DNA of 64,000 nucleotides from Escherichia coli. Its GTDB lineage: Bacteria > Pseudomonadota > Gammaproteobacteria > Enterobacterales > Enterobacteriaceae. The translations under genes were made by a program, and so were the position numbers. The stretch lies in NCBI RefSeq assembly GCF_003334335.1, contig NZ_QOWQ01000006.1. The stretch is one strand, 5' to 3'. Below, one piece after another: positions 14,215 to 51,000 of this stretch. The notes under the pieces were generated by a model. That model was not told where the DNA came from. It saw only the letters and a list, made by a program, of their open reading frames with translations, and searched no databases. How positions within the stretch are numbered: position 1 is the stretch's first letter; every line of letters begins with the position of its first letter.

Positions 14215-14264
14215 ATAGTGTTCCCTTTTATTTATTGTTCCGGCTAATTGTTATTTAATTCAGC

Positions 14265-15191: not shown

Positions 15192-15390
15192 CTGTTTTTC
15201 ACCTCTCCGTTGCGTTTATCCCGGATATAGATGAGTTGTTCTTTTAAGAGCTTCCGGCTCTGCATGATGATGTCCTTATATTTGGCATTCCTGAACAAGG
15301 AAGAGTAACAACGGGCGGGACGCGAGGGGAATAAATGATTTCTGAAAAGTCCGGTAGCGGAACATTACCGCCACCGGGAGAATTTGCATG

Positions 15391-16218: not shown

Positions 16219-16322
16219 ACGTTCCTCCTTTATATGAACTCACCGGAGCAGGCTCCGGTGAGGTGTTGTGAACTTAAGTCTGGACGAAATGCCCGAAAAC
16301 GAAAGTTTGAGGCGTAAAAAGC

Positions 16323-17486: not shown

Positions 17487-17622
17487 TACTTGCTCCCTTT
17501 GCTGGGCCAATATGAGGGCAGAGAACGATCTGCCTGATGTTTTTCATTGTGATCGCCAGCGCCCTGGCTCTCAATGCTCATTTCTGCCAATGTCTTGCCT
17601 ATTTCTCCAGAGTGCTGGAGAA

Positions 17623-18579
17623 ATGCTACAAAATTGCGCACAATCAAATTGCCGCATTATTCCTAAGAAATTACGCGATATGAAACGTGAAGAGATTTGC
17701 CGCTTGCTGGCGGATAAAGTTAATAAACTGAAAAATAAAGAAAATAGTTTGTCAGAACTGTTGCCCGATGTGCGTTTGTTGTATGGCGAGACGCCTTTCG
17801 CACGTACACCGGTGATGTACGAGCCTGGCATCATAATTCTCTTTTCCGGGCATAAAATCGGTTATATCAATGAACGCGTGTTTCGTTATGATGCCAATGA
17901 ATACCTGCTGCTGACGGTGCCGTTGCCGTTTGAGTGCGAAACCTATGCCACGTCAGAGGTGCCGCTGGCAGGGTTGCGTCTCAATGTCGATATTTTGCAG
18001 TTACAGGAACTGTTGATGGACATTGGCGAAGATGAGCATTTCCAGCCGTCGATGGCAGCCAGCGGGATTAACTCCGCCACGTTATCAGAAGAGATTTTAT
18101 GCGCGGCGGAGCGGTTACTCGACGTGATGGAGCGACCACTGGATGCGCGTATTCTCGGCAAACAGATCATCCGCGAAATTCTGTACTACGTGCTGACCGG
18201 ACCTTGCGGCGGCGCGTTACTGGCGCTGGTCAGTCGCCAGACTCACTTCAGTCTGATTAGCCGCGTGCTGAAACGGATTGAGAATAAATACACCGAAAAC
18301 CTGAGCGTCGAGCAACTGGCGGCAGAAGCCAACATGAGCGTATCGGCGTTCCACCATAATTTTAAGTCTGTCACCAGTACCTCGCCGTTGCAGTATTTGA
18401 AGAATTACCGTCTGCATAAGGCGCGGATGATGATCATCCATGACGGCATGAAGGCCAGCGCAGCAGCGATGCGCGTCGGCTATGAAAGCGCATCGCAATT
18501 TAGCCGTGAGTTTAAACGTTACTTCGGTGTGACGCCGGGGGAAGATGCGGCAAGAATGCGGGCGATGCAGGGGAATTAA
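17623..18579 (+). CDS. yqhC: AraC-family regulator YqhC (activator of yqhD-dkgA)
   Basis: C-terminal AraC HTH; start set at MLQNCAQSN (about 318 aa) because the longer track ORF would overlap the divergent yqhD start. Confidence 0.85.
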
Positions 18580-18618
18580 ATACGTTCCCGGTACAGCAAC
18601 CGGGAACGGGGAAAATCG

Positions 18619-19278
18619 TCAGGCGTTACAGTATTTTTTTTTAATCACCACAAACAGCGTGCCTAACAAGCCAGCGGTTAACAAGGCAATTGGCAGGATC
18701 ATCAGGAACGTCATTACCTGATCTTCATGGCGTTTAACGAACGGAATCATACTTAAGGCATAGCCAAAACTGGTTACCACGCTGACCCACAGCAATCCAC
18801 TTAACCAGTTGAAAAACTGGAAGCGGCGGTTTGGCAGACCGGAAATTCCCGCCATGGTTGGCAGCAGCGTACGGACAAATGCAAGAAAACGTCCAGCCAG
18901 CAGCGCCAGCAGACCGTGGCGGTCAAACATGCAGGTGGCGCGCTGGTGATATTTAGCAGGAAGCTGTGCCAGCCAGCCTTTCACCGTTTTGGTATTCCCT
19001 AACCAGCGCCCCTGAATATAACTTAGCCAGCAGCCCAGACTTGCTGCGGCGGTCAGAATCGCAATCGTAGGCAGAAAATCCATAACCCCCTGGGCAATCA
19101 ATGCGCCTGCCAGTATCAACAAGCTGTCGCCTGGCAAAAATGAGGCGGGCAGCAGGCCGTTTTCTAAAAACAGCGTGGCAAACATGACAAAGTAAACAAC
19201 GCTAACAATATGAGGATCCGCCAGCGCGGCAAAGTCGTGTTGCCAGAGCGCAGCGATGATATCTTGAATAACAGCCAT
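18619..19278 (-). CDS. yghB: DedA-family inner membrane protein YghB
   Basis: 219-aa multi-[29 protein letters not shown]... Confidence 0.9.
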
Positions 19279-19417
19279 GGACTTTCCTGTGGAACAGCGT
19301 TTAAGCCTTTATCTGCCTATTGTACTCCTGAATCGTCCGGGACGCCTTGATCCCGGACGCAACAATTTAAGACTTTTCACAATAAAATGTCTGCAAAATT
19401 GTCCAAAAGTGGCAATG

Positions 19418-20605
19418 TTATACAATTCGCGCAAAACCGGCGTCCAGATCGGCAATCAGATCGTCGACATCTTCCAGACCAATATGCAGGCGAATCAAGG
19501 TCCCGCTAAAATCGATCTCGCCTTGTGGGCGAATGGCGGCGATATGTTCTGGTTGATTTGCCAGGATCAACGATTCATACCCGCCCCACGAGTAGGCCAT
19601 GCTGAATAAACTGAAGTTATCCAGATAGTTCGCCAGCTCTTCATTATTGAGTTTTTTCTTAAGCACAAAGGAAAATAGCCCGCTGCTGCCTGTAAAGTCT
19701 CGTTTCCAGAATTCGTGACCTTTACTGCCAGGCAGAGCAGGGTGGTTAACTCGCGCAACTTGCGGATGTTCTGCCAGCCATTCAGCCACTTTCAGACTGC
19801 TTTCATGATGTTGACGCAAACGCACACCTAATGTGCGCAGGCCACGGCTGGTTATATAGGCGGTATCGGCATCGACCATCTGGCCCATCAGATAGGCATT
19901 TTCCCGTAGCTGCTCCCAGCAACGGGCATTGCACACGGCAGTGCCAATCATCGCATCTGAATGCCCAACCAGATATTTGGTGGCGGCTTGAATAGAAACA
20001 TCGATGCCAAAATCCAGCGCCTTAAACAGCACACCGGCTGCCCAGGTGTTGTCGATCATAATGATGGCATCCGGCACCACACTGCGTACGGCGGCAACAA
20101 TCGCCGGAACGTCGTGGACTTCCATGGTGATGGAGCCTGGCGATTCCAGAAACACGATTTTAGTGTTTGGCTGCAGATGCTTAACGATATCGGCACCAAT
20201 CAGCGGATCAAACCATGATGTCGTTACGCCCAGTTTGCTGAGGATTTTGCTACAGAAATCCTGACTCGGTTCATAGGCGGTGTTGGTCATCAACACATGA
20301 TCGCCCTGTTCGATAAAAGCAAGAATGGAATTAGCAACCGCTGCCGCCCCGCAGGGAAATAGCACGCAGCCTGCGCCACCTTCCAGTTCACACATCGCTT
20401 GTTGTAAGGAGAAATGGGTTAACGTTCCGCGCCGTCCATAGAACAACTCTCCATTGGCGCGATTACGTGTCGCGTGTTTTTTGGCTTCTACACTGTCAAA
20501 GACCAGCGAAGAAGCGCGCTGAATCACGCTATTTACCGCGCCGAGAGAGTATTTTTTGCTGCGTCCTGCATTCACCAGTTGAGTATCAAGCTTTTTGTCC
20601 GCCAT
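19418..20605 (-). CDS. metC: cystathionine beta-lyase
   Basis: Start at [19 protein letters not shown] (395 aa); PLP-dependent Cys/Met metabolism fold; the track ORF is extended 45 codons upstream. Confidence 0.95.
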
Positions 20606-20625
20606 GTCGGGATTCCTGTTTTTAT

Positions 20626-20639
20626 ACGTCTGGATGTCT
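20626..20639. promoter_or_regulatory. candidate tandem MetJ boxes upstream of metC
   Basis: ACGTCTGGATGTCT resembles two adjacent 8-bp met boxes (consensus AGACGTCT). Confidence 0.4.
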
Positions 20640-20769
20640 AAACTAGCATGAATATTCGCGGGCGCATCCTGAAGAATTGGCATAAAGCAGAAAATTTTCG
20701 CAAATGGCGTGCTGGTGACTTTTTTACTGCGTAAACGCAAGGAAAAGAAAGCAAAGGTACGGCAGTATG

Positions 20770-20795
20770 CAAATAGTAATGAGAACGACTATCAA
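20770..20795. promoter_or_regulatory. candidate Fur box in exbB promoter
   Basis: AAATAGTAATGAGAACGACTATCAAT is A/T-rich with partial match to GATAATGATAATCATTATC; exbBD is iron-regulated. Confidence 0.3.
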
Positions 20796-20856
20796 TTCGA
20801 CGTCGTTTTGATATTATTATGCGCAGATTTTGTGACTTGCGTCCTGGAGATACACA

Positions 20857-37977: not shown

Positions 37978-38015
37978 AAAATGCCCGGTCCTGGCGATCG
38001 GGCATTTCCATTTTT
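37978..38015. terminator. bidirectional terminator between pitB and yghT
   Basis: aaatgcccggtcctggcgatcgggcattt hairpin followed by T-run. Confidence 0.7.
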
Positions 38016-38017
38016 GA

Positions 38018-38710
38018 CTAGTGATAACCACGCGCGGTCATAAAATCCGTAATCGCTTTTTCTGCATCAACCAACACCTGTTCCAGTGGCTGATTGGCAT
38101 CGATATCAACCAGTTGTGCACCACCAAAGGTTAACTGTGGCGTTATGGCAATCTTCCTCGCCAGCGATTCCCGTTTATGGTCGGGTTTACGTGCACAGGC
38201 AACTTCAAGGTCAACATTGAGTTTGATGACCAGATCAGGCTTATGGCTCGCCATCCAGTGAAACGCTTTACGTTCCTGGCTTGCCAGCCATGAGACAAAA
38301 CGACCACCTTCAACGTTAGGTGGGAACACCGTACCATCGTAAGCGCCAGGAATTTGGTCCTGAGGATAACGGTCGGTTAGAACAATTAACCCGCGACGAC
38401 GACAGGCAAGCATATGACGAAAGCGCAGTAAGCGACGGGCGACAAACGCTGTAATTACCAGCGCCGGAACTGGTCCAGGCAATTTTTTTGCTGTTTTCAC
38501 CTGATTTCGTTCAATTGTTTTATGTAAGGATTTTCCCATCAACGGTAATTTTGTCACTGCACGACCGACATTTCCGGCCTGTTTTCCTAAATGAACTCTT
38601 TCGGCAGCACCATATTTTTCGACAACGGTAATAAGATGTTCACACACCGTTGACTTGCCTGAACCATCGCTACCAATAACGGCAATTAATGGAGGTGTTA
38701 TTGACTGCAT
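38018..38710 (-). CDS. yghT: P-loop NTPase, predicted kinase-like protein YghT
   Basis: 230-aa ORF with N-terminal Walker [10 protein letters not shown]; shares TDRYPQ and RKPDH motifs with yghS and yghR. Confidence 0.85.
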
Positions 38711-38790: not shown

Positions 38791-38814
38791 TGTCACAATT
38801 AACCATTGTCACAA
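38791..38814. promoter_or_regulatory. direct repeat TGTCACAAT x2 in yghT/yghS divergent promoter region
   Basis: tgtcacaattaaccattgtcacaat; the second copy sits in the perfect palindrome ATTGTCACAAT. Confidence 0.3.
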
Positions 38815-38883
38815 TAAGGTTGAACGGATATTCTGAGCACGGACCACGTAATATTCAATACATTATTTACTGCCGGGTTTTTC

Positions 38884-39597
38884 GTGAATCAACGTAATAT
38901 GTCAATAATTAATTCCACGCCAGTGCGTGTTATTGCCATTGTAGGATGTGATGGTTCAGGTAAATCGACCCTCACGGCAAGCCTGGTAAATGAACTGGCA
39001 GCAAGAATGCCAACAGAACACATTTATCTCGGGCAATCGTCCGGGCGAATTGGCGAATGGATTTCACAGCTCCCTGTTATTGGCGCACCTTTTGGGCGTT
39101 ATCTGCGAAGTAAAGCGGCACATGTGCACGAAAAGCCCTCAACACCGCCTGGCAATATTACTGCACTGGTTATCTATCTGCTTTCCTGCTGGCGGGCGTA
39201 CAAGTTTCGCAAAATGTTGTGTAAAAGCCAGCAAGGCTTTCTGCTCATCACCGACCGCTACCCGCAGGTTGAAGTGCCGGGGTTTCGCTTTGATGGCCCG
39301 CAATTGGCAAAAACCACGGGCGGTAACGGTTGGATAAAAATGTTAAGGCAGCGCGAGCTGAAGCTGTACCAATGGATGGCATCTTATTTGCCCGTATTGT
39401 TGATTCGTCTTGGCATTGATGAACAAACCGCGTTTGCGCGTAAACCTGACCACCAACTGGCAGCGTTACAGGAAAAAATCGCCGTTACGCCGCAACTGAC
39501 ATTCAATGGCGCAAAGATCCTTGAACTGGATGGGCGACACCCCGCCGATGAAATTCTGCAAGCGTCACTACGCGCAATTCACGCCGCGCTTTCCTGA
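38884..39597 (+). CDS. yghS: P-loop NTPase, predicted kinase-like protein YghS
   Basis: 237-aa ORF (GTG start) with Walker A GCDGSGKST; paralog of yghT and yghR. Confidence 0.85.
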   Translation: MNQRNMSIINSTPVRVIAIVGCDGSGKSTLTASLVNELAARMPTEHIYLGQSSGRIGEWISQLPVIGAPFGRYLRSKAAHVHEKPSTPPGNITALVIYLLSCWRAYKFRKMLCKSQQGFLLITDRYPQVEVPGFRFDGPQLAKTTGGNGWIKMLRQRELKLYQWMASYLPVLLIRLGIDEQTAFARKPDHQLAALQEKIAVTPQLTFNGAKILELDGRHPADEILQASLRAIHAALS

Positions 39598-39628: not shown

Positions 39629-40387
39629 ATGGATGCACTACAAACTCAAACTGTTAATAGTACAACCGCGCCGCAGCCCAACTACATTCCGGGGCTGATT
39701 GCGGTGGTCGGGTGTGATGGCACCGGTAAATCCACACTGACCACCGACCTGGTGAAATCGCTGCAACAACACTGGCAAACCGAGCGGCGCTATCTGGGGC
39801 TGCTCTCCGGCGAAGACGGCGACAAAATCAAACGATTGCCGTTGGTTGGCGTCTGGCTGGAACGGCGACTGGCGGCCAAATCCTCGAAAACCCAAAGCAT
39901 GAAAACCAAATCTCCGGCGCTATGGGCGGCGGTGATTATGTACTGCTTCTCGCTGCGAAGAATGGCGAATCTACGCAAGGTTCAGCGACTGGCGCAAAGT
40001 GGCGTTCTGGTGGTCAGCGATCGCTTCCCGCAGGCTGAAATTTCGGGCTTTTATTATGATGGACCGGGGATTGGCGTCGAACGTGCGACCGGGAAAATCA
40101 GCATGTTTCTGGCGCAGCGCGAACGGCGTTTATACCAACAAATGGCGCAATATCGCCCGGAATTAATTATTCGCCTGGGCATTGATATTGAGACTGCCAT
40201 CTCCCGCAAGCCTGACCATGACTATGCCGAGCTGCAGGACAAAATCGGTGTCATGTCGAAGATTGGCTATAACGGCACAAAAATTCTTGAGATTGATTCC
40301 AGAGCGCCCTACAGCGAAGTGCTGGAACAGGCACAGAAGGCGGTTTCTCTGGTTGCCATCGTTTCTGACCGCCGAAGTTTAACTTAA
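39629..40387 (+). CDS. yghR: P-loop NTPase, predicted kinase-like protein YghR
   Basis: 252-aa ORF with Walker A GCDGTGKST and the paralog motifs SDRFPQ, SRKPDH. Confidence 0.85.
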   Translation: MDALQTQTVNSTTAPQPNYIPGLIAVVGCDGTGKSTLTTDLVKSLQQHWQTERRYLGLLSGEDGDKIKRLPLVGVWLERRLAAKSSKTQSMKTKSPALWAAVIMYCFSLRRMANLRKVQRLAQSGVLVVSDRFPQAEISGFYYDGPGIGVERATGKISMFLAQRERRLYQQMAQYRPELIIRLGIDIETAISRKPDHDYAELQDKIGVMSKIGYNGTKILEIDSRAPYSEVLEQAQKAVSLVAIVSDRRSLT

Positions 40388-40432: not shown

Positions 40433-41782
40433 TTGGCGGGTTTTAACATCAAACATTGGTTTGCAGATGGCGCGTTTCGCACCATTATTCGCAATAGCGC
40501 CTGGTTAGGCTCCAGTAATGTCGTGAGCGCCTTGCTGGGTCTGTTGGCGCTCTCGTGTGCCGGTAAAGGGATGACGCCCGCCATGTTTGGCGTACTGGTG
40601 ATTGTGCAATCGTACGCCAAGTCGATCAGCGATTTTATTAAGTTTCAGACATGGCAACTGGTGGTTCAGTACGGAACACCAGCATTAACCAACAATAATC
40701 CGCAGCAATTCCGCAATGTCGTCTCATTTTCCTTCTCGCTGGATATCGTCAGCGGCGCGGTGGCGATTGTCGGTGGCATTGCCTTACTGCCATTCCTTTC
40801 CCATTCATTAGGTCTGGATGACCAAAGTTTTTGGCTGGCAGCGCTCTATTGCACGCTCATTCCTTCAATGGCTTCCTCCACGCCGACCGGCATTCTGCGT
40901 GCGGTAGATCGCTTCGATTTAATTGCTGTACAGCAGGCGACGAAACCTTTTCTGCGCGCAGCGGGGAGCGTCGTAGCCTGGTATTTTGACTTTGGTTTTG
41001 CGGGTTTTGTTATTGCCTGGTACGTGTCGAATCTGGTTGGCGGCACCATGTACTGGTGGTTTGCCGCGCGCGAATTACGCCGCCGAAATATCCATAACGC
41101 CTTCAAATTGAATCTGTTTGAGTCTGCCCGATACATTAAAGGCGCGTGGAGTTTTGTCTGGTCAACCAACATTGCCCACTCCATCTGGTCGGCGCGTAAC
41201 TCGTGCAGCACAGTGTTGGTGGGGATCGTGTTAGGACCCGCTGCCGCCGGGTTATTTAAAATCGCCATGACATTCTTCGACGCCGCCGGAACGCCAGCGG
41301 GTTTGCTGGGTAAAAGTTTTTACCCAGAGGTGATGCGTTTAGATCCGCGCACCACCAGACCGTGGTTGTTAGGTGTGAAGTCCGGTTTACTGGCGGGCGG
41401 AATCGGTATTCTGGTGGCGCTCGCGGTGTTGATCGTCGGCAAGCCGCTCATTTCGCTGGTGTTTGGCGTTAAGTATCTCGAAGCGTATGACCTGATTCAG
41501 GTGATGCTGGGCGCAATTGTGATTTCGATGCTGGGCTTCCCTCAGGAGTCATTGCTATTGATGGCGGGAAAACAGCGCGCTTTTCTCGTGGCGCAAACCA
41601 TCGCCTCAATCGGCTACATCGTATTGCTGTTCATGTTCTGTCATCTGTTTGGTGTGCTGGGAGCAGCGTTTGCTTACTTCGGTGGGCAATGTCTGGACGT
41701 GGCGCTCTCGTTAATTCCAACCTTAAAGGCATTTTTTCAGCGCCATTCCTTGCTTTATAACGCAGCCGGAGAGAAATCCTGA
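40433..41782 (+). CDS. yghQ: MOP-superfamily (Wzx-like) flippase YghQ, full length
   Basis: 449-aa polytopic ORF; start codon uncertain (track start is TTG); stop overlaps the next gene start (TGATG). Confidence 0.8.
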   Translation: MAGFNIKHWFADGAFRTIIRNSAWLGSSNVVSALLGLLALSCAGKGMTPAMFGVLVIVQSYAKSISDFIKFQTWQLVVQYGTPALTNNNPQQFRNVVSFSFSLDIVSGAVAIVGGIALLPFLSHSLGLDDQSFWLAALYCTLIPSMASSTPTGILRAVDRFDLIAVQQATKPFLRAAGSVVAWYFDFGFAGFVIAWYVSNLVGGTMYWWFAARELRRRNIHNAFKLNLFESARYIKGAWSFVWSTNIAHSIWSARNSCSTVLVGIVLGPAAAGLFKIAMTFFDAAGTPAGLLGKSFYPEVMRLDPRTTRPWLLGVKSGLLAGGIGILVALAVLIVGKPLISLVFGVKYLEAYDLIQVMLGAIVISMLGFPQESLLLMAGKQRAFLVAQTIASIGYIVLLFMFCHLFGVLGAAFAYFGGQCLDVALSLIPTLKAFFQRHSLLYNAAGEKS

Positions 41783-42606
41783 TGATGAGAAAATATTTCC
41801 CGCTTGAGGCGAGCGAGCGTCTATTTGTTGCGATTGAAGAAGATGATGTCGTTGATGCACAGGTTAGTTTGCCGCCGACTATTGCACTAAGTTGTACCAC
41901 CGAAATCATTCATGATAATTACGCGTTATGCCTGCAATTCTGGCTCAATGGCGTTGATCGTCAGGAGTTACTGCGTTTAGTTCGCAAACAAGCCAAAGGC
42001 GATGAGCTGACTGCTGATGAGCGCAAACAATTTAAATACATGCGAGCGCGCTACAAGCACCTGCGTTTTGCGCAACGGCTGTATTTAAAGAAGCATCAGG
42101 CCGGATTTTTATTCGGCAAAACGACCGTTTTTCTGGGGCGTTTTCAGGACGGCTTTCGTAACGGTAAGAAAAATATTGTGTCGTATTACGGCAACCTGTT
42201 ACGGATTTATTTAAGCTCTCCGGTCTGGTCGTTGGTGAACTATTCATTACGCCATAGCCAGTTAGAAAGCGTAAGCAGTTTTATTGCCTATCGGCAAAAG
42301 CAAATGCATACCCTGAAAGAGATTATTGCCAAACCGCGACTAACCGGTAGGGAATTTCATGATGTGCGAAAAATCATCAGCCAGCAGGTTTCTTATTACG
42401 ACACCTTAAGATCGCTTGATCCTGAAAATAAAGAGGCGTTACAGATATCCCGCTTCCTCGCCGCCATTAATGGCCTGATGGGAGATAAACACGACGACAT
42501 GGTGGCGGATGATATGGAAAACCGCCAGTCGTATGATGCACCGGTGGCGCTGGATAGCGATATTCGTCAGCGCTTAGAGCTGCTGATTTCGCGTTTTCCG
42601 CTATAG
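41782..42606 (+). CDS. hypothetical cytoplasmic protein (274 aa), coupled to yghQ
   Basis: ORF MMRKYFPLEASERLFVAIEEDD...; 1-nt overlap with the yghQ stop; no motif I can recognise. Confidence 0.6.
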   Translation: MMRKYFPLEASERLFVAIEEDDVVDAQVSLPPTIALSCTTEIIHDNYALCLQFWLNGVDRQELLRLVRKQAKGDELTADERKQFKYMRARYKHLRFAQRLYLKKHQAGFLFGKTTVFLGRFQDGFRNGKKNIVSYYGNLLRIYLSSPVWSLVNYSLRHSQLESVSSFIAYRQKQMHTLKEIIAKPRLTGREFHDVRKIISQQVSYYDTLRSLDPENKEALQISRFLAAINGLMGDKHDDMVADDMENRQSYDAPVALDSDIRQRLELLISRFPL

Positions 42607-42614
42607 CCGGAGCA

Positions 42615-43178
42615 ATGATGTCATCTCGTTTGATTATTGCGTTGATTATCATGCTCTTAGCCCCGGGTGTGCAGGCACACAATTTCGTCACTGGCAAAAC
42701 GGTTACCCCTGTTTATATCCAGGAAGGCGGCGAGCTGCTTCTGAATAGCGACGACGAAATTCACTACCAAAAGTGGAACAGCACACAATTAGCGGGAAAA
42801 GTCCGCATTATTCAGTATATCGCCGGGCGTAAGTCGGCGAAGAAAAAGAACTCACTGTTAATTAAAGCGGTTGAAGCGGCAAACTTTCCGCAGGATCGTT
42901 TTCAGCCCACCACCATTGTGAACACCGATGATGCCATCTTTGGTACTGGCTATTTTGTTGTTGGCAAAATCGAAAAAAATAAACGCCGCTATCCGTGGGC
43001 GCAATTCGTTATTGACGGCAATGGACAGGGACGCGTTGCCTGGCGCTTGCCGGAGCAGAGTTCAACCATTCTGGTGCTGAATAAAGCCGGGCAAATTCAG
43101 TGGGCAAAGGACGGCAGCCTGACGCCGGAAGAGGTAGATCATGTCATTGCGTTGGCGCAGAAACTGATCAATGAATAA
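42615..43178 (+). CDS. periplasmic YtfJ/HI0045-like protein
   Basis: 187-aa ORF with signal peptide MMSSRLIIALIIMLLAPGVQA and motifs (AGKVRIIQYIAGR, TTIVNTDDAI, QWAKDGSLTPEEV) that I recall from YtfJ. Confidence 0.65.
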   Translation: MMSSRLIIALIIMLLAPGVQAHNFVTGKTVTPVYIQEGGELLLNSDDEIHYQKWNSTQLAGKVRIIQYIAGRKSAKKKNSLLIKAVEAANFPQDRFQPTTIVNTDDAIFGTGYFVVGKIEKNKRRYPWAQFVIDGNGQGRVAWRLPEQSSTILVLNKAGQIQWAKDGSLTPEEVDHVIALAQKLINE

Positions 43179-43208
43179 AAAACTCAAAGGATTGAGGGCG
43201 TTAGTGAG

Positions 43209-44279
43209 ATGAAGCTGGTTGAACACTACATCATGCGTGGTACGCGCCGTCTGGTGCTGATTATCGTCGGTTTTCTGATCTTTATTTTCGCCAGCTACTC
43301 CGCACAGCGTTATCTGACCGAAGCGGCAAATGGGACATTAGCTCTTGATGTTGTGCTGGATATCGTTTTCTACAAAGTACTGATTGCACTGGAGATGTTG
43401 TTACCTGTTGGTCTGTATGTGTCAGTTGGCGTGACGCTAGGGCAGATGTATACCGACTCGGAAATTACCGCTATCTCTGCGGCGGGGGGCAGTCCGGGAC
43501 GCTTGTACAAAGCCGTTCTTTATCTGGCGATACCGCTAAGTATTTTTGTCACCCTTCTGTCGATGTATGGTCGTCCGTGGGCTTATGCGCAGATTTATCA
43601 ACTGGAGCAGCAGTCGCAGTCGGAGCTGGATGTTCGCCAGTTGCGGGCAAAGAAATTTAACACTAACGATAACGGACGAATGATCCTTTCGCAGACGGTT
43701 GATCAGGATAATAATCGCCTGACTGACGCGCTGATTTATACTTCTACTGCCAATCGAACCCGCATTTTCCGCGCCCGTTCGGTTGATGTGGTTGACCCAT
43801 CACCCGAGAAACCGACCGTTATGTTGCACAACGGCACTGCCTATCTTATCGATCATCAGGGGCGTGATGACAACGAACAGATCTACCGTAATCTGCAATT
43901 ACATCTGAATCCGCTGGATCAAAGCCCTAACGTCAAACGCAAAGCGAAATCGGTCACGGAGCTGGCGCGCTCCGTCTTTCCAGCCGATCATGCCGAACTG
44001 CAATGGCGGCAAAGCCGTGGCCTGACCGCATTGTTGATGGCGCTGCTGGCCATTTCATTAAGTCGGGTAAAACCGCGGCAAGGGCGATTTTCAACGTTAT
44101 TGCCACTGACGTTGCTGTTTATTGCCATTTTTTATGGCGGTGACGTCTGCCGTACGCTGGTGGCTAACGGCGCGATTCCCCTCATTCCTGGTTTGTGGTT
44201 AGTACCCGGACTCATGCTAATGGGCCTGCTGATGCTGGTCGCACGCGACTTCTCTTTGCTGCAGAAATTTTCCCGATGA
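43209..44279 (+). CDS. LptF/LptG-family (YjgP/YjgQ) permease, first of pair
   Basis: 356-aa ORF; YTDSEITAISAAG and KPRQGRFSTLLP resemble the LptF motifs YTESEIT and NPRQGR; multiple TM segments with a large periplasmic loop. Confidence 0.75.
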   Translation: MKLVEHYIMRGTRRLVLIIVGFLIFIFASYSAQRYLTEAANGTLALDVVLDIVFYKVLIALEMLLPVGLYVSVGVTLGQMYTDSEITAISAAGGSPGRLYKAVLYLAIPLSIFVTLLSMYGRPWAYAQIYQLEQQSQSELDVRQLRAKKFNTNDNGRMILSQTVDQDNNRLTDALIYTSTANRTRIFRARSVDVVDPSPEKPTVMLHNGTAYLIDHQGRDDNEQIYRNLQLHLNPLDQSPNVKRKAKSVTELARSVFPADHAELQWRQSRGLTALLMALLAISLSRVKPRQGRFSTLLPLTLLFIAIFYGGDVCRTLVANGAIPLIPGLWLVPGLMLMGLLMLVARDFSLLQKFSR

Positions 44280-45355
44280 ATGTTTTCAGCCGCTATTTAA
44301 TCCGTCATCTCTTTCTCGGTTTTGCCGCCGCCGCAGGGCTATTGCTGCCGCTTTTTACCACCTTCAACCTGATTAACGAACTGGATGATGTCAGCCCGGG
44401 CGGTTATCGCTGGACTCAGGCGGTGCTGGTGGTGCTAATGACCTTACCGCGCACACTGGTCGAACTTTCGCCATTTATCGCCTTATTGGGAGGGATTGTC
44501 GGCCTGGGGCAGTTATCGAAAAACAGTGAGCTTACCGCCATTCGCAGCATGGGGTTTTCTATCTTCCGTATTGCACTGGTGGCGCTGGTTGCAGGGATAT
44601 TGTGGACTGTTTCGTTAGGCGCGATAGATGAGTGGGTAGCGTCGCCATTACAGCAACAGGCGTTGCAAATCAAATCGACCGCCACCGCGTTGGGGGAGGA
44701 CGATGACATTACCGGCAATATGCTGTGGGCCAGGCGTGGTAATGAATTTGTGACGGTGAAATCGCTGAACGAGCAGGGCCAGCCGGTGGGCGTGGAGATT
44801 TTTCATTATCGCGACGATCTCTCGCTCGAATCCTACATTTATGCACGCAGTGCCACCATTGAAGACGACAAAACGTGGATCCTGCATGGTGTGAATCATA
44901 AAAAATGGCTGAATGGCAAAGAAACGCTGGAAACATTAGATAATCTTGCCTGGCAATCGGCCTTCACCAGTATGGATCTTGAAGAGTTATCAATGCCGGG
45001 CAATACTTTTTCTGTCCGTCAGCTTAATCATTACATCCATTATTTGCAGGAAACCGGGCAACCCAGCAGCGAATACCGCCTTGCACTGTGGGAAAAACTG
45101 GGGCAACCCATCCTGACCCTGGCGATGATTTTGCTGGCTGTGCCGTTTACCTTTAGCGCCCCGCGCTCGCCAGGGATGGGTAGCCGTCTCGCTGTAGGTG
45201 TCATCGTTGGCTTACTCACCTGGATCAGCTATCAAATCATGGTCAATCTGGGATTGCTATTTGCGTTGAGCGCACCTGTTACCGCGCTCGGTTTACCGAT
45301 AGCGTTTGTGCTGGTGGCGTTGAGCCTGGTGTATTGGTATGACAGACAACATTAA
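44276..45355 (+). CDS. LptF/LptG-family (YjgP/YjgQ) permease, second of pair
   Basis: Start at MNVFSRYLIRHLFLGF via ATGA overlap with the upstream stop; LptG-like motifs (ELTAIRSMGFS, RSPGMGSRLAVG); the track ORF is extended 27 codons upstream. Confidence 0.75.
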   Translation: MNVFSRYLIRHLFLGFAAAAGLLLPLFTTFNLINELDDVSPGGYRWTQAVLVVLMTLPRTLVELSPFIALLGGIVGLGQLSKNSELTAIRSMGFSIFRIALVALVAGILWTVSLGAIDEWVASPLQQQALQIKSTATALGEDDDITGNMLWARRGNEFVTVKSLNEQGQPVGVEIFHYRDDLSLESYIYARSATIEDDKTWILHGVNHKKWLNGKETLETLDNLAWQSAFTSMDLEELSMPGNTFSVRQLNHYIHYLQETGQPSSEYRLALWEKLGQPILTLAMILLAVPFTFSAPRSPGMGSRLAVGVIVGLLTWISYQIMVNLGLLFALSAPVTALGLPIAFVLVALSLVYWYDRQH

Positions 45356-45356
45356 A

Positions 45357-45383
45357 CCCGCCGTGGCGCAACACCACGGCGGG
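45357..45383. terminator. bidirectional hairpin between the permease operon and the SPT-like gene
   Basis: cccgccgtgg-cgcaaca-ccacggcggg inverted repeat. Confidence 0.6.
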
Positions 45384-45459
45384 CTCACATTACTGCTTCA
45401 GAGTAGCAAATGCCTGAATGATGGCATCGATTTGCTCACGACTGTGAGCAGCGTTTACG

Positions 45460-46569
45460 CTACAGCGCAGCAGCGTGATGCCTGCAGGCGCGGCAGGTGG
45501 CAGGTGGCAGGATAAGATTCACATAAACGCCCAGCGAAATAAGCTCGCGCCAGATGCGTAAACCGTCCTCTTTCGAACCGATTATTACCGGCACTACCGG
45601 GCTAATATGTGAACTTAACTCATAACCCAGTTTTTGCAGACCGTCATACAGATGGTTGGCATTATCCATCAGCTTTTGCCGCAGCTCTGGTTGTGTGGCA
45701 ATAGTTCTTAACGACGAGCGCACGGTCGCAATGCAGGACGGAGAAGGAGAGGCGGTAAAAATATACGGGCGGCTGCCGTAGCGCAGCACTTCCATCGCTT
45801 CCGAACCGACAGCAAAACCGCCAATCGAGGCCAGACTTTTACTGAAGGTGCCAACGATAATATCCACATCATCTTCAACGCCGACAGCTTCAGCCAGTCC
45901 GCGCCCCGTTGCGCCTAACACGCCAAACGAATGCGCTTCATCGACAATCAAATAACCACCGAGACGACGTTTGATATCAACAATTTCCGCTAACGGCGCA
46001 ACGTCACCGAGCATGCTGTAGATACCCTCAACGATGATAATCGCCTCTTTCGCCCGTTCACCGAGGCGAACCATGCGCCGTTCCAGATCTTTAGCATCGT
46101 TATGGCGGAAACGAATAATTTCCGCGCCACCGAGAGAACAGGCGTCATAAATACTGGCGTGGCTGTCGGCATCCAGTAACACCACGGCGTTATGGTCGGC
46201 AAGTGCGCTGATGACGCCTAAATTAGCGGTATAACCGGTTGAAAAAACGATAGCGGTAGGGCGATTGAAAAACTCGGCAATCTCTTTCTCTAACGCCAGG
46301 TGCGGCGCATAACTGCCGTTTGCCATACGAGAACCGGTGGTGCCGGTACCTTGGGCCGCTAACGCGGCCTGACCTTCGCTGATGGCATCATGATTAAAGG
46401 TTAAACCGAGATAATTATTGGTCCCGGCCAGAATCACTTTTTTATTGCCGATCCGGCCTTCGGTGGCGGAATACACTTCATCAATACAGGTGCCAAACGG
46501 TGTTAACCCGTTGTCACTAAATTGCAGTCGCTCGCCAGCAAGGCGCGCATATTTATCGTATAGCCCCAT
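45460..46569 (-). CDS. serine palmitoyltransferase-like alpha-oxoamine synthase (PLP-dependent), 3' end apparently frameshifted
   Basis: 369-aa ORF with GTFSKS PLP-lysine motif and class-II aminotransferase fold; C-terminus TCRACRHHAAAL is atypical, and an alternative frame restores a canonical end at the TAA at 45390-45392. Confidence 0.8.
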   Translation of the reverse strand: MGLYDKYARLAGERLQFSDNGLTPFGTCIDEVYSATEGRIGNKKVILAGTNNYLGLTFNHDAISEGQAALAAQGTGTTGSRMANGSYAPHLALEKEIAEFFNRPTAIVFSTGYTANLGVISALADHNAVVLLDADSHASIYDACSLGGAEIIRFRHNDAKDLERRMVRLGERAKEAIIIVEGIYSMLGDVAPLAEIVDIKRRLGGYLIVDEAHSFGVLGATGRGLAEAVGVEDDVDIIVGTFSKSLASIGGFAVGSEAMEVLRYGSRPYIFTASPSPSCIATVRSSLRTIATQPELRQKLMDNANHLYDGLQKLGYELSSHISPVVPVIIGSKEDGLRIWRELISLGVYVNLILPPATCRACRHHAAAL

Positions 46570-46817
46570 TATTTATTCTCCAGCCATGGAAGTAGAGTTT
46601 CCATTAATTGCGCAGGGGTTTTGACATCCAGCAGAATATTAATAGGAATGGAAATATCGAATCTGTCTTCCAGCATCATTAAGAGATCCATCACTTTGAT
46701 CGACTCCAGGCCAAGATCGTTGACGAGATCGCTGTCGGGCTTAATTTCCACACCGTTTTCGACCAAATCCTGTAAACAGGAAAGGATGTAATCCATTACT
46801 ATTTCACGATTTACCAT
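46569..46817 (-). CDS. acyl carrier protein (phosphopantetheine-binding)
   Basis: 82-aa acidic ORF with DLGLESIKVMDL Ser-attachment motif; 1-nt overlap with the downstream SPT-like start. Confidence 0.8.
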   Translation of the reverse strand: MVNREIVMDYILSCLQDLVENGVEIKPDSDLVNDLGLESIKVMDLLMMLEDRFDISIPINILLDVKTPAQLMETLLPWLENK

Positions 46818-46848: not shown

Positions 46849-47763
46849 TCAAAATAGCCCGTTGCGTAATGCGTGTTCCAGGCTAATCCCGGGAAACCAA
46901 TTAATATCTTCAGAAATACGGTTATTACTTGCCGACCAGTCGGCGTGGGTTAATTCACGAATTTTCGAGCGGGTCAGCATAGGTTCTTTACCTGCCAGGC
47001 GACTCAACGCGGTACTGATATCCGCAAGGCCGGTGAGTACCGGCAGAGGAATGCCAACCATTCGCACGGAACCGCAACGGGCGTCGGCGGCAAGTTGCTG
47101 TACGCGTTGCCAGTCATAGCCGCCGGCGACGCCATCGCATAATTCATAGGTTTGCGTCTGTATAGTTTCGGCGCTTAACCACTGACCCACTGCTTGCGCG
47201 AAATCGGTGACGTGCAGAAAAGAGAGCTGTGTATCTGGCGCACCAAGTCGTGGCAGCAGGCCGCGCAGCATCCAGTCAAACAGCGGTTTTAACTCTTTAT
47301 CGCCGGGACCATACACGGCTGTCGGGCGAAAAACGCCCAGCGTAATTTCGTCCGCCATTGCTGCCAGTCGTTGCTCGGCGACGTATTTGGATTTTGCATA
47401 CCAGGAGAGCTCGGGATGGCGCGCCGCCAGCGAAGAGATAAACAGAAAACGTTGGCAAAAGCCGCTCTCTTTTGCTGCTTGCATCAGGCGCAGGCTGCCG
47501 TCAACGTTACAGCGGGTGAAAATCTCTTCTTTGTGCCCGCGCACTTGCCCGGCGCAATGGACCACTACGCTGGCTCCGGCAACCAGCTCGCTAAGTGAAT
47601 GAGTATCTTCCAGCGAACCGCGCACCCAGGTGAGATTATCATTGACGTGAGCGCGGGCAGTACGCGTCAATGCGCGAACGTGAAAGCCGCGGGCGAGCAG
47701 GTTATCGATAATATATTTACCGATAAACCCGGTAGCGCCCGTCACCGCGACAGTTTGATTCAT
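46849..47763 (-). CDS. NAD(P)-dependent epimerase/dehydratase-family reductase (candidate 3-ketosphinganine/ceramide reductase)
   Basis: 304-aa ORF with VTGATGFIGKYI Rossmann motif and YAKSK catalytic dyad; 4-nt overlap with the upstream adenylase gene. Confidence 0.8.
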   Translation of the reverse strand: MNQTVAVTGATGFIGKYIIDNLLARGFHVRALTRTARAHVNDNLTWVRGSLEDTHSLSELVAGASVVVHCAGQVRGHKEEIFTRCNVDGSLRLMQAAKESGFCQRFLFISSLAARHPELSWYAKSKYVAEQRLAAMADEITLGVFRPTAVYGPGDKELKPLFDWMLRGLLPRLGAPDTQLSFLHVTDFAQAVGQWLSAETIQTQTYELCDGVAGGYDWQRVQQLAADARCGSVRMVGIPLPVLTGLADISTALSRLAGKEPMLTRSKIRELTHADWSASNNRISEDINWFPGISLEHALRNGLF

Positions 47764-49481
47764 GCCAGGGATTCCTGCACATTAAGACTGGCAGCATAAG
47801 CCTTCTGATAACGTTTTTTCGCTTCCGCACGGGCAGGCTTGCCGGAGGACGTTCGGGGAATACTGTGGGGCGGCAACAGATCGATAGCCGCGGTCACGCC
47901 AAATTCGCTTTGGATCCGTGCCGCCAGCGCGTGGATAAGCTGCCCGCGACGTTCTTCGTCGCTGATCCGACACTGGATCTGCAAAATGATTTTTTCCTGG
48001 GCGGTAACAAAAGCAATCGCATCGCCAGAATGAATTTCCGGTTCCTGTTCCGCTATATATTCAATATCCTGCGGCCAGATATTACGGCCACGAATAATAA
48101 TCAGATCTTTAATGCGTCCGGTGACATACAGATAACCGTCCAGCAGATAACCGAGGTCGCCGGTGTCTAACCAGCCCGTCGCGGCAATCTCGTCTTGCGA
48201 AACCTGGTCGCCAAAGTAACCGCTCATCAGACTGGGACCGGAGATGCAAATATGGCCTACCACACGTTCCGCGACCGGCATACCTGCTTCATTGCGGATT
48301 TCAATACCATGTTCCGGCAACGCTTTGCCGCAGTTGACGAAAGTCGATACGGCGCGTGTCTCTGCACCCGGCGCGACGGCTTTACCCTGATATTCGAGGA
48401 TGTCGCGATCCACTTCGTTAACCACAACCCCGGAGGCTTCATCAGAGAAGCTGACAGCCAGCGCATTTTCTGCCAGTCCGTAGCACGGCATGAAAGTTTT
48501 ATTGTCAAAGTTAACCTGACGGAAACATTCAGCGAATTGATGGAGTTGTTCTGCGGAGATGGGTTCTGCACCAATACCAGCGACGCGCCAGCAGGAAAGA
48601 TCCAGTTCAGCGAGATCTTTTTCATTCACGCGGCGCTGGCACAATTCATAGCCAAACGGCGGCGCAACGGAAACGGTGCCGCGATTTTTACTGATCAATT
48701 TAAGCCATTGCAGAGGACGCATGGCAAAATCCTGAGTGCGCAAATAATCTACTGAAAGCTGCGTGGCGACGGGGGTCAGGAGAAAGCCGACCAGTCCCAT
48801 ATCATGGTAGAAAGGCAGCCAGGAGACGCAGCGGTCGCCAGGGCGTAATTTAATGCCGTCGTGGCTTATAGCACGTAGATTAGCCATCACTTCGCGATGG
48901 GTGATAATGACGCCACGGGGAAAACGGGTGCTGCCGGAGGTGTACTGGAGGTAGGCGATATCGTTCGGAACTGGACGCTGGAGCGCAACATCGGCTTCCG
49001 GTAATGCCTTAAACCAGGCGTGGCTTAAAACATGTAATTCGGGGTTGTCATGCGTCGCGGCATTGACCAGTGGCAACCACTCATCACCAGTGATAATGGC
49101 TGCGGGCTGGCAACTTGCCAGTAAACCCTGCAATTTGGCGCTCCAGGAATCCCGCTGACCAACGCCCATTGGAATCGCCAACGGGACGGCGACTAAGCCG
49201 GCATACTGGCAGGCAAAAAAAGCCTCTACGAACTCGCTACTTGTTTCGGCAATCAGTGCCACGCGATCGCCTTTTTTCAGGTTCAGCGATAACAACCGCT
49301 TCGCACCAGCTTCGGCACGTGCTTTTAACGTCTGATATTCCAGTTGATCTTCAAGTTGGCAACGTCTGTCATAAAAATTCATTCCGGCGCTACTCAGAGC
49401 GGCGTAGTCCAAAGCATCAACAAGCGTTGGAAAATCGGCATAGCGCATAGGTAGGGAATGCGTAAAGATTTTATTAGACAT
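47760..49481 (-). CDS. fatty acyl-AMP ligase / acyl-ACP synthetase-like adenylating enzyme
   Basis: About 573 aa with AMP-binding core YTSGSTRFPRGV and TGDLGY motif; start uncertain (track starts at GTG 49490, ATG at 49481). Confidence 0.8.
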   Translation of the reverse strand: MSNKIFTHSLPMRYADFPTLVDALDYAALSSAGMNFYDRRCQLEDQLEYQTLKARAEAGAKRLLSLNLKKGDRVALIAETSSEFVEAFFACQYAGLVAVPLAIPMGVGQRDSWSAKLQGLLASCQPAAIITGDEWLPLVNAATHDNPELHVLSHAWFKALPEADVALQRPVPNDIAYLQYTSGSTRFPRGVIITHREVMANLRAISHDGIKLRPGDRCVSWLPFYHDMGLVGFLLTPVATQLSVDYLRTQDFAMRPLQWLKLISKNRGTVSVAPPFGYELCQRRVNEKDLAELDLSCWRVAGIGAEPISAEQLHQFAECFRQVNFDNKTFMPCYGLAENALAVSFSDEASGVVVNEVDRDILEYQGKAVAPGAETRAVSTFVNCGKALPEHGIEIRNEAGMPVAERVVGHICISGPSLMSGYFGDQVSQDEIAATGWLDTGDLGYLLDGYLYVTGRIKDLIIIRGRNIWPQDIEYIAEQEPEIHSGDAIAFVTAQEKIILQIQCRISDEERRGQLIHALAARIQSEFGVTAAIDLLPPHSIPRTSSGKPARAEAKKRYQKAYAASLNVQESLA

Positions 49482-49857: not shown

Positions 49858-51000
49858 ATGGAATGCGATCTGCTGATGATTAAAATTGAAAAAGTAATTA
49901 ATAAAAATGACCTTAAGGCATTTATCGCTTTTCCGTCATCACTTTATCCCGACGATCCAAACTGGATACCCCCTTTATTCATTGAACGCAACGAGCATTT
50001 GTCTGCGAAAAATCCGGGGACGGACCATATCATCTGGCAGGCGTGGGTAGCAAAAAAAGCGGGGCAGATAGTTGGGCGTATTACCGCGCAAATAGATACC
50101 TTGCACCGCGAGCGTTACGGCAAAGATACCGGTCATTTCGGCATGATTGACGCCATTGATGATCCGCAGGTTTTTGCCGCGTTGTTTGGCGCAGCGGAAG
50201 CGTGGTTGAAGTCACAAGGTGCAAGTAAGATCAGCGGTCCTTTCAGCCTGAATATCAATCAGGAAAGCGGATTACTGATTGAAGGTTTTGACACACCACC
50301 CTGTGCGATGATGCCACACGGCAAACCGTGGTATGCCGCGCATATTGAACAACTGGGTTATCACAAAGGCATTGATTTACTGGCGTGGTGGATGCAGCGA
50401 ACCGATCTCACTTTCTCTCCGGCGCTAAAAAAACTGATGGATCAGGTGCGCAAAAAGGTGACCATTCGCTGCATCAATCGTCAGCGGTTTGCCGAAGAGA
50501 TGCAGATCCTGCGTGAGATTTTCAACTCTGGCTGGCAGCACAACTGGGGATTTGTGCCGTTTACCGAACATGAATTCGCGACCATGGGCGATCAACTTAA
50601 ATATCTGGTGCCGGACGATATGATCTATATCGCTGAGATTGATTCTGCACCCTGCGCGTTTATTGTCGGCTTGCCGAACATCAACGAGGCGATTGCCGAT
50701 CTGAACGGATCGCTCTTTCCCTTCGGCTGGGCAAAATTGCTGTGGCGTTTGAAAGTCAGCGGTGTGCGAACTGCGCGAGTACCGCTGATGGGCGTGCGCG
50801 ACGAGTATCAGTTCAGCCGCATCGGCCCGGTGATTGCGCTGTTATTGATTGAAGCCTTACGCGATCCGTTTGCCCGCCGGAAGATCGATGCGCTGGAGAT
50901 GTCATGGATCCTCGAAACCAATACAGGCATGAATAACATGCTGGAACGCATTGGGGCGGAGCCGTACAAGCGTTACCGATTGTATGAAAAGCAGATTTAA
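49858..51000 (+). CDS. yghO: YghO, intact (candidate N-acyltransferase; pseudogene in K-12)
   Basis: About 380 aa from MECDLLMIKIEK (track ORF starts at TTG 49780); divergent from the lipid operon; start uncertain. Confidence 0.7.
   Translation: MECDLLMIKIEKVINKNDLKAFIAFPSSLYPDDPNWIPPLFIERNEHLSAKNPGTDHIIWQAWVAKKAGQIVGRITAQIDTLHRERYGKDTGHFGMIDAIDDPQVFAALFGAAEAWLKSQGASKISGPFSLNINQESGLLIEGFDTPPCAMMPHGKPWYAAHIEQLGYHKGIDLLAWWMQRTDLTFSPALKKLMDQVRKKVTIRCINRQRFAEEMQILREIFNSGWQHNWGFVPFTEHEFATMGDQLKYLVPDDMIYIAEIDSAPCAFIVGLPNINEAIADLNGSLFPFGWAKLLWRLKVSGVRTARVPLMGVRDEYQFSRIGPVIALLLIEALRDPFARRKIDALEMSWILETNTGMNNMLERIGAEPYKRYRLYEKQI

Follow-up and report, generated by a model that had tools for sequence, protein, structure and literature searches.

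A second LptF/LptG-family permease pair as part of a candidate sphingolipid transport arm in Escherichia coli

What does a second pair of LptF/LptG-family permeases carry, when it is encoded beside a lipid-synthesis operon and no ATP-binding cassette (ABC) ATPase accompanies it? We addressed this question for a five-gene stretch of Escherichia coli consisting of yghQ, a gene for a 274-amino-acid protein that is assigned below to the CHAD fold (hereafter the CHAD gene), ytfJ2, lptF2 and lptG2. The stretch lies in a window of 64,000 nucleotides (nt), the whole piece of DNA that was analysed (contig NZ_QOWQ01000006.1 of assembly GCF_003334335.1), within the E. coli chromosomal region hyb-gss-pitB-yghTSR...yghO-glc, and shows 100% identity to strain 300709. 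The original prediction, made from the letters of the window, had proposed that the lipid made next to it has an export route of its own, possibly powered by LptB or another borrowed ATPase. Our observations on gene content, family and fold assignments, conservation, linkage and residue patterns support this proposal by analogy, through a precedent in Caulobacter, the synteny in E. coli, glutamates that are kept and lipopolysaccharide (LPS) contacts that are lost. We put at roughly 70% the probability that the five genes, probably joined by yghS and yghR, constitute the transport arm of an enterobacterial sphingolipid island.

The permease pair and the adjoining lipid pathway

All five open reading frames (ORFs) were found where they had been predicted (Table 1), and both overlaps of stop and start codons, TGATG at 41780-41784 between yghQ and the CHAD gene and ATGA at 44276-44279 between lptF2 and lptG2, were read directly in the sequence. 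The remaining intergenic gaps are 8 nt (CHAD gene/ytfJ2) and 29 nt (ytfJ2/lptF2). The start of lptG2 was placed at the ATG at 44276, which is the RefSeq start and aligns with LptG, and not at the GTG at 44195 of the mechanical ORF list; for ytfJ2, RefSeq places the start one codon later, at 42618 instead of 42615.

The family names given to the permeases and the periplasmic protein held up against hidden Markov models, the LptF, LptG and YtfJ models all scoring above their curated cut-offs. LptF2 reached 318.3 bits against TIGR04407 (cut-off 230) and LptG2 308.3 bits against TIGR04408 (cut-off 240), each with the correct F/G preference, and both matched solved structures in the PDB over their full length of about 340 residues (LptF2 to LptF chains at E 4e-32, LptG2 to LptG chains at E 5e-42). 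On the same models the canonical K-12 LptF and LptG scored 385 and 456 bits, and the identity to these paralogues was 29% for LptF2 and 28% for LptG2. As judged from these matches, LptF2 and LptG2 are true members of the LptF/LptG family (PF03739). PGAP/RefSeq names the paralogues lptF and lptG, 'LPS export ABC transporter permease' (e.g. NZ_CP025903.1), because their scores of 318 and 308 bits lie above the equivalog cut-offs of 230 and 240; yghQ carries the name 'lipopolysaccharide biosynthesis protein'. Two lptF and two lptG genes are thus listed in most E. coli RefSeq genomes.

The naming of the second pair as LPS exporters is likely to mislead, as indicated by the residues that contact LptB and LPS. 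LptF E84 and LptG E88 are known to act in LptB binding and function (PMC5082905). The equivalent coupling-helix glutamates, E85 in LptF2 and E85 in LptG2, are invariant in 30 of 30 orthologues, as are G92/G96 of the coupling helix, and Y80 is kept in 29 of them. In the LPS-bound structure, the lipid A phosphates and the core are held by LptG K34, K62, R133, R136, K40 and K41 together with LptF R33 and K317, and the K34E substitution is lethal in canonical LptG (PMC6744409). We found that the position of K34 in LptG2 is occupied by N, D, T or A, with a basic residue in none of the 30 orthologues; K40 is replaced by D or E and K41 by D in all 30, and the R133 position is non-basic throughout. 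Basic residues are retained at the equivalents of LptF R33, LptG K62 and LptG R136, and the full cationic set of lipid A/core contacts is not present in LptF2/LptG2. The mapping of LptF K317 and K322 shifted between the 3-sequence and the 31-sequence alignment, and these positions were left out of the contact argument. Since the LPS contacts are lost while the LptB-docking glutamates stay, the pair is suggested to carry a cargo other than LPS: the predicted ATPase-docking surface appears to be kept, and the LPS-specific cationic rim on LptG TM1 appears to have become acidic, which would fit a different, smaller and less anionic cargo.

Compared with the canonical LptB2FGC complex (LptF b4261, LptG b4262; PDB 6MHU, 6S8H), the second pair belongs to the same family over its full length and has the same tandem arrangement of overlapping genes and the same coupling-helix residues. 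In contrast to the canonical pair, which adjoins pepA, it sits in a ceramide locus, is 28-29% identical, lacks K34, K40, K41 and R133, and is absent from K-12. Within this locus, lptG2 lies 35 nt from spt, the canonical lptFG genes are found elsewhere in E. coli, and no extra lptB is present; this linkage is kept in about 30 species. In agreement with the original prediction, no ABC ATPase is annotated within 20 kb. The neighbouring P-loop proteins YghT, YghS and YghR have a Walker A motif (GxDGxGKS) but neither an ABC signature nor a membrane segment; lacking that signature, they do not supply the missing ABC ATPase.

The adjoining lipid-synthesis operon was confirmed, and its lipid class, which had not been named before, could be specified as a sphingolipid pathway. 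The operon is convergent to lptG2 and reads aasR-cerR-acpR-spt, followed by yghO; with a fatty acyl-AMP ligase, an NAD-dependent reductase, an acyl carrier protein (ACP) plus a serine palmitoyltransferase in addition to yghO, it is therefore the published bacterial ceramide pathway. Padilla-Gomez et al. characterised AasR, AcpR and Spt of E. coli BL21 biochemically, listed the reductase and yghO (ECD_02850, 'aca') as the other two dihydroceramide genes, and found all five clustered only in C. crescentus and E. coli BL21 (PMC9386255).

A precedent for the export of such lipids is given by Caulobacter. Olea-Ozuna et al. predicted that CC_1168, CC_1156 and CC_1155 (LptC2, LptF2 and LptG2), together with CC_1166, carry phosphosphingolipids to the outer membrane (PMC11324152). 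In a 2026 bioRxiv preprint, Uchendu, Isom and Klein showed that the three lpt2 genes of Caulobacter can be deleted only in the absence of spt or cpgB, and, by pull-down, that LptF2 co-purifies with LptG2 and both with the only LptB of the cell; its Fig. 2B draws the locus of E. coli UTI89, and lptF2/lptG2 are reported from many alpha- and gammaproteobacterial loci, with lptC2 restricted to Caulobacter species (10.64898/2026.04.12.717747). The LptB-borrowing mechanism is thus already known from Caulobacter, the one organism in which the LptF2-LptG2-LptB interaction and the spt-dependent essentiality were shown, and the E. coli locus was already drawn in that work. The C. crescentus genes (CCNA_01214/01213/01226 for LptF2/LptG2/LptC2) share with E. 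coli a second LptF/LptG pair in a sphingolipid locus, the lack of lptB there, and a PF01943 MOP protein nearby. They differ in that E. coli LptG2 is 22-24% identical to a Caulobacteraceae LptG2, with bit scores below those to canonical E. coli LptG, and in that the E. coli locus lacks LptC2 and the cpg head-group genes and adds the CHAD-fold protein, YtfJ2 and three dTMP-kinase-like proteins. In pairwise comparisons, E. coli LptG2 scored 358-374 bits against LptG2 of Pseudomonas, 128-143 bits against canonical E. coli LptG and 45-51 bits against one LptG2 of Caulobacteraceae, which itself groups with LptG2 of a distant high-GC locus (L068, see below) at 135-159 bits. These values, which are pairwise scores and not a tree, with canonical Caulobacter LptFG outside the comparison, suggest that the gammaproteobacterial LptF2/LptG2 may be a lineage separate from the Caulobacter pair, possibly of independent origin.

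Proteins encoded with the permeases

The MOP/Wzx-like label proposed earlier for YghQ was borne out by matches to PF01943 (Polysacc_synt; 1e-8, residues 19-280, with a weak second match at 316-437) and to PF13440 (Polysacc_synt_3; 4e-7), and a crude hydropathy scan gave several hydrophobic segments, as expected for the MOP superfamily. YghQ is 33% identical to the product of a gene beside aasR in a Caulobacteraceae locus, and Caulobacter CC_1166, a proposed sphingolipid flippase, belongs to the same InterPro/Pfam family (PF01943; PMC11324152 supplement). On the basis of family membership, YghQ is a candidate inner-membrane lipid flippase.

The 274-amino-acid protein had been described as unknown. 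By itself it indeed has no match in Pfam or NCBIfam and no meaningful match in the PDB when searched as a single sequence. Its family, however, extends beyond Enterobacterales (212 cluster representatives at E<=0.001) and could be assigned. In an alignment of 74 family members, R88, D123, H193, R196 and D238 are invariant, and the profile finds 6QV5, a CHAD domain, at E 0.0016 in an alignment that covers both His/Arg motifs; among the 74 members, one matches Pfam CHAD (PF05235) at E<=0.001 and 18 do so at E<=0.1. The AlphaFold2 (AF2) model (pLDDT 97.3) is all alpha-helical and was counted as having the CHAD helical fold of two helical bundles. A Foldseek search with the model gave no significant match (TM 0.37), and hhalign of the family alignment against the single E. 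coli YgiF sequence gave nothing informative. The protein has no hydrophobic segment and a basic pI of 9.3, pointing to a cytoplasmic location. Because of the profile match to 6QV5, the Pfam CHAD matches of relatives and the all-helical model, we assigned it as a predicted divergent, stand-alone CHAD-fold protein, cytoplasmic and basic. Published work describes CHAD domains as modules that bind polyphosphate (10.1101/567040, also PMC6537752). In comparison with known CHAD proteins (Ricinus communis 6QV5, Chlorobium tepidum 3E0S, Streptomyces PptA 6RN5), the E. coli protein itself is too divergent for Pfam CHAD, and its coupling, within a lipid locus, is to a MOP flippase and not to CYTH, PPK or PPX genes. 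The gene contexts of four distant homologues, P0255, P0137 and P0175 (on short contigs) and P0146, were little informative. In P0255 (L063:1598-5065; 1155 amino acids), the CHAD-like domain stands at the extreme C-terminus (941-1150), and a small DUF2247 gene comes after it; other long CHAD-like fusions are P0250 (976 amino acids), P0264 (983), P0268 (659) and P0123 (564, with two matched stretches).

YtfJ2 scored 212.1 bits against TIGR01626 (cut-off 151.1) and is 55% identical to K-12 YtfJ (b4216; PF09695/TIGR01626), which scored 300 bits. The two proteins share their length, an invariant IAGRxSAKKxN motif and a signal peptide, seen in YtfJ2 as a hydrophobic segment at residues 1-22 ending in VQA; YtfJ2 differs in being a second copy, inside the sphingolipid operon, with the lower family score. 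Its AF2 model (pLDDT 84.8) matched TlpA/CcmG/peroxiredoxin-type thioredoxin-like folds in Foldseek (E about 1e-7, TM 0.5-0.63). Searches of the PDB with the single YtfJ2 sequence and with a YtfJ profile returned nothing meaningful, and no function for YtfJ was reported in the literature found. The mature protein has no cysteine and is therefore not a thiol oxidoreductase. Since ytfJ2 is absent from the Pseudomonas, Caulobacteraceae and high-GC loci compared, YtfJ2 is predicted to be an Enterobacterales-specific periplasmic accessory factor that is redox-inactive.

The P-loop proteins YghT, YghS and YghR are paralogues with 34-44% identity to one another. Their family profile found thymidylate kinases as the best PDB matches (E 1.8e-7), and the same profile matched the cPPK3 homologue 2PLR/5H70 of S. 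tokodaii at only E 0.017; PDB searches with YghR and YghS as single sequences returned nothing meaningful. A relationship to CpgB, the ceramide kinase of Caulobacter, was rejected, as CpgB is a kinase of the DAGK/GGDG type. A role in anti-phage defence was likewise rejected: PADLOC gave nothing for the five proteins, and Walker-A-level noise only for YghS, YghR and YghT.

In Enterobacterales, in Pseudomonas and in a distant high-GC taxon alike, the dTMP-kinase-like genes are kept beside sphingolipid genes, and the module of dTMP-kinase-like, PF01943 MOP and CHAD-like genes recurs on distant high-GC contigs, one of which (L067) has no spt on 17.5 kb. On a metagenomic contig (L068; GC 64.5%, 7932-20837), a YghT-like protein, YghQ (54%) and a CHAD-like protein (37%) are encoded in one run, and the locus also holds YghR-/YghS-like proteins, an Asp/Arg hydroxylase, PAP2, YghO, Caulobacter-type LptF2/LptG2, DUF2141, a DAGK-type kinase (DAGK_cat), Spt and ACP, making it a mixture of 'E. 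coli-type' and 'Caulobacter-type' parts. Crenarchaeal PPK3 consists of two exapted dTMP-kinase paralogues encoded beside a CHAD protein (PMC12995831). The crenarchaeal operon (ppx-sixA-two dTMP-kinase-like subunits-CHAD) shares with the E. coli locus tandem paralogues of the dTMP-kinase superfamily by a CHAD gene, with the canonical dTMP kinase encoded elsewhere; in contrast, the E. coli locus lacks ppx, sixA and pst, and we regard the likeness as a resemblance only. It is conceivable, and in our estimation improbable, that the dTMP-kinase-like/MOP/CHAD module is a head-group machine not recognised so far, which would draw on an oligo- or polyphosphate donor, or itself build one as PPK3 does, and decorate ceramide on the cytoplasmic side before it is flipped. 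A phosphorylated sphingolipid not yet described would then be a product of most E. coli and of many Enterobacterales, exported by an LptF2/LptG2 lineage that arose independently of that of Caulobacter, with YtfJ2 as a new type of periplasmic lipid-handling factor.

Conservation, the proposed export route and its alternatives

The segment is present at a coverage of at least 80% in 4092 of 5426 complete E. coli genomes, and about a quarter of them lack most of it. Related loci were collected with one genome per species and the intact Spt of the locus L001 as the query, which returned 56 loci. The complete set of 13 genes (yghT, yghS, yghR, yghQ, the CHAD gene, ytfJ2, lptF2, lptG2, aasR, cerR, acpR, spt and yghO) was found in Escherichia, Pseudocitrobacter, Citrobacter, Hafnia, Pluralibacter, Serratia, Mangrovibacter, Pantoea sp. 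A4, Sodalis and Rosenbergiella. Three gene orders occur: the two operons are convergent, as here, or co-directional, or else yghS-yghR, yghQ-CHAD(-ytfJ2) and lptF2-lptG2 form separate sub-units. In every order, yghQ and the CHAD gene are adjacent and co-oriented. Retention of the same gene set through rearrangement is good evidence for a functional linkage. The dN/dS values of all 12 genes compared between E. coli and other Escherichia or Pseudocitrobacter were 0.03-0.18, indicating purifying selection.

The earlier statement that K-12 retains only yghQ was correct in so far as yghQ is there; it is, however, a truncated pseudogene, and yghT, yghS, yghR and yghO are also kept. In a K-12-type genome (L004; NZ_CP152469.1, locus 4001-6195), IS5 stands exactly in the place of a lost stretch of eight genes that runs from the 3' end of yghQ through aasR; the yghQ pseudogene keeps the first 1069 of 1350 nt and has lost its C-terminus through IS5. 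Genome H18 carries an insertion of the IS5-like ISKpn26 in the same region.

In the Pseudomonas/Stutzerimonas loci (L028, L034-L036), LptF2/LptG2 are 51-55% identical to the E. coli pair, and aasR-cerR-acpR-spt, yghO and two YghS/R-like genes are shared. These loci, in contrast to that of E. coli, have no yghQ, CHAD-like gene or ytfJ2 within 10 kb and instead contain an MsbA-like ABC exporter, directly 3' of spt, a DAGK-type lipid kinase and a CptA-like phosphoethanolamine transferase. The MsbA-like gene looks like a non-homologous replacement of the flipping step of YghQ, and the CptA-like gene hints at a phosphoethanolamine-type head group in Pseudomonas.

From these data we infer the following route for E. 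coli, in its individual steps, in the identity of the lipid and in the roles of YghQ, the CHAD-fold protein and YtfJ2. The synthesis of ceramide or a derivative would take place at the cytoplasmic face and involve AasR, AcpR, Spt and YghO, the reductase being CerR. The CHAD-fold protein, whose gene appears translationally coupled to yghQ, would probably act with the three dTMP-kinase-like proteins on a phosphate-containing head group or its donor before flipping, and the MOP-family protein YghQ would flip the lipid to the periplasmic leaflet. There, the LptF2-LptG2 heterodimer, docked on the housekeeping LptB dimer via its conserved coupling helices, would draw on ATP hydrolysis to pull the lipid out of the inner membrane and pass it on in the direction of the outer membrane, most likely across the Lpt bridge already in place, with YtfJ2 as a redox-inactive periplasmic accessory factor found in Enterobacterales only. 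Beyond the known mechanism, our analysis adds the residue argument for a non-LPS cargo with retained LptB docking, the 13-gene set in three orders, the assignment of a CHAD fold and of a redox-dead thioredoxin fold, the likely extent of the operon over seven genes (see below), the possible independent origin of the gammaproteobacterial pair and a strain-specific frameshift in spt.

Several points weigh against this route. No LptC2 equivalent is present in the E. coli locus, and the modelled fold of YtfJ2 is thioredoxin-like and not a beta-jellyroll as in LptC/LptA, so that YtfJ2 is not an obvious bridge element. The match of YghQ to the NCBIfam MOP equivalog is weak (32.5 bits, cut-off 273), and the operon boundaries are drawn from spacing and consensus scans only. 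By pairwise scores, E. coli LptG2 lies nearer to canonical E. coli LptG than to a Caulobacteraceae LptG2, so that orthology of the E. coli pair with the Caulobacter proteins that were tested is uncertain and its function is carried over by way of analogy and synteny. The literature found reports neither a sphingolipid from E. coli nor an experiment on the transport role of these E. coli genes. Finally, spt is frameshifted in this strain, so the pathway may be off here: GGCAGGT occurs three times instead of twice (duplication at 45492-45498), which shifts the frame of the last ~34 codons and leaves an ORF of 369 amino acids as compared with 390 in the intact copy of L001. The 7-nt insertion is found in none of the 4104 complete E. 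coli genomes carrying the segment (best identity 93.1%, which is exactly the 7-nt gap). It represents either a strain-specific inactivating mutation, in which case the strain cannot make the lipid, or an error in the sequence.

Among the alternatives, the least unlikely one retains the machinery and changes the cargo, which would be a free or N-acylated long-chain base, or a derivative phosphorylated or decorated by YghR/S/T and the CHAD-fold protein, unlike the ceramide diphosphoglycerate of Caulobacter. The absence of the Caulobacter head-group genes from the E. coli locus is consistent with this; CpgB is of the DAGK type and not a P-loop protein, and three dTMP-kinase-like P-loop proteins and a CHAD-fold protein are found there instead. 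Also consistent with it is the rim of LptG2, acidic where that of LptG is basic, which nevertheless keeps three basic residues of the 1'-phosphate site. All five dihydroceramide genes, however, are present and conserved, making a ceramide backbone the simplest expectation. A cargo of LPS itself we consider very unlikely. The pair would then be a redundant or condition-specific LPS exporter, with YghQ acting on an LPS- or O-antigen-related substrate, as might be read from the equivalog scores, the lptF/lptG names given by PGAP and the kept coupling helices. This is opposed by the loss of four cationic LptG contacts in 30 of 30 orthologues, two of them charge-reversed, when K34E alone is lethal in canonical LptG, and by scores well under those of canonical LptF and LptG (318 against 385 bits and 308 against 456 bits). 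Moreover, the locus contains no glycosyltransferase or lipid A gene, and the pair travels with spt in Enterobacterales and Pseudomonas and is missing from K-12.

The least probable explanation is decay, the genes being a remnant that no longer serves any function in E. coli. The IS5-associated deletion of eight genes in K-12, the ISKpn26 insertion in H18, the quarter of complete genomes without most of the segment and the frameshifted spt of this strain could all be taken as signs of decay. Against this stand the low dN/dS of 12 genes among Escherichia species and Pseudocitrobacter, the retention of the full set across about ten genera, and the restriction of the spt insertion to the present sequence as compared with 4104 complete genomes.

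The route proposed here, export of a ceramide-derived lipid by LptF2/LptG2 with LptB, matters because outer-membrane biogenesis is studied with E. coli as the reference organism, and the locus is missing from its textbook strain. A full ceramide pathway is encoded in about three quarters of complete E. coli genomes, BL21 and UTI89 among them, along with an Lpt-type extractor dedicated to it, for which LptB is presumably shared with LPS export. Should the pathway be active, the outer membrane of E. coli would hold a lipid class missing from K-12-based models, antibiotics that target LptB would strike two export routes at once, and the PGAP names of the second lptF/lptG pair would mislead. The CHAD-fold assignment and the recurring dTMP-kinase-like/MOP/CHAD module offer concrete handles on the head-group chemistry.

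Operon limits and neighbouring features

The original prediction described a five-gene plus-strand operon. The five genes are linked; the unit, however, probably does not begin at yghQ. Because the gaps are small, no strong terminator-like hairpin is found inside, a promoter-like site precedes yghS and relatives have a co-oriented run, a seven-gene transcription unit starting at yghS is probable, as judged from spacing and consensus scans. The genes yghS and yghR lie upstream of yghQ in the same orientation, the gaps measuring 31 and 45 nt, and strong terminator-like hairpins occur only after pitB (37979-38007) and behind lptG2, with none between. In Serratia, Mangrovibacter and Pantoea sp. 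A4, yghS-yghR-yghQ-CHAD-ytfJ2-lptF2-lptG2 form a single co-oriented run. Promoter-like matches in the region are no more frequent than in shuffled sequence, so that the site upstream of yghS is weak evidence.

Table 1. Features of the locus in the window and, in the last three rows, of the Pseudomonas/Stutzerimonas locus L034
Feature	Position	Strand	Product or nature	Remarks
sigma-70-like promoter match	38806-38834	+	upstream of yghS	9/12 hexamer positions; consensus match only
yghT	38018-38710	-	dTMP-kinase-like P-loop protein	divergent; 34-36% identical to YghS/YghR; Walker A GSDGSGKS; retained with the gene set in every Enterobacterales locus
yghS	38884-39597	+	dTMP-kinase-like P-loop protein	probable first operon gene; ORF, RefSeq, family profile
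yghR	39629-40387	+	dTMP-kinase-like P-loop protein	44% identical to YghS
yghQ	40433-41782	+	MOP-superfamily (Wzx-like) membrane protein, candidate flippase	TTG start, as in RefSeq
CHAD gene	41782-42606	+	CHAD-fold protein, 274 amino acids	predicted cytoplasmic; start overlaps yghQ stop (TGATG)
ytfJ2	42615-43178	+	YtfJ family, predicted secreted	thioredoxin-like fold (model), no cysteines
lptF2	43209-44279	+	second LptF-family permease	
lptG2	44276-45355	+	second LptG-family permease	start overlaps lptF2 stop (ATGA)
terminator-like hairpin	45353-45387	.	16-bp, GC-rich	between two convergent operons; probably shared terminator
spt	45390-46569	-	serine palmitoyltransferase	7-nt tandem duplication in this strain
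acpR	46569-46817	-	specialised acyl carrier protein	RefSeq annotation; PMC9386255
cerR/epi	46849-47763	-	NAD-dependent reductase of the ceramide pathway	RefSeq annotation; PMC9386255
aasR	47760-49448	-	acyl-AcpR synthetase (fatty acyl-AMP ligase)	RefSeq annotation; PMC9386255
yghO	49858-51000	+	homologue of bacterial ceramide synthase (bCerS)/acyl-CoA N-acyltransferase	RefSeq annotation; PMC9386255
DAGK-type kinase gene (L034)	1489-2532	-	DAGK-type lipid kinase	beside lptG2
MsbA-like gene (L034)	11267-13000	+	MsbA-like ABC exporter	
CptA-like gene (L034)	14732-16480	+	CptA-like phosphoethanolamine transferase	

The product of yghO is 42% identical to that of a Caulobacteraceae gene. On a second contig of Serratia sp. 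M24T3 (L026, 9754-11167), with no other genes of the locus within 10 kb, we found an extra acpR-spt pair, the Spt of which is 79% identical.

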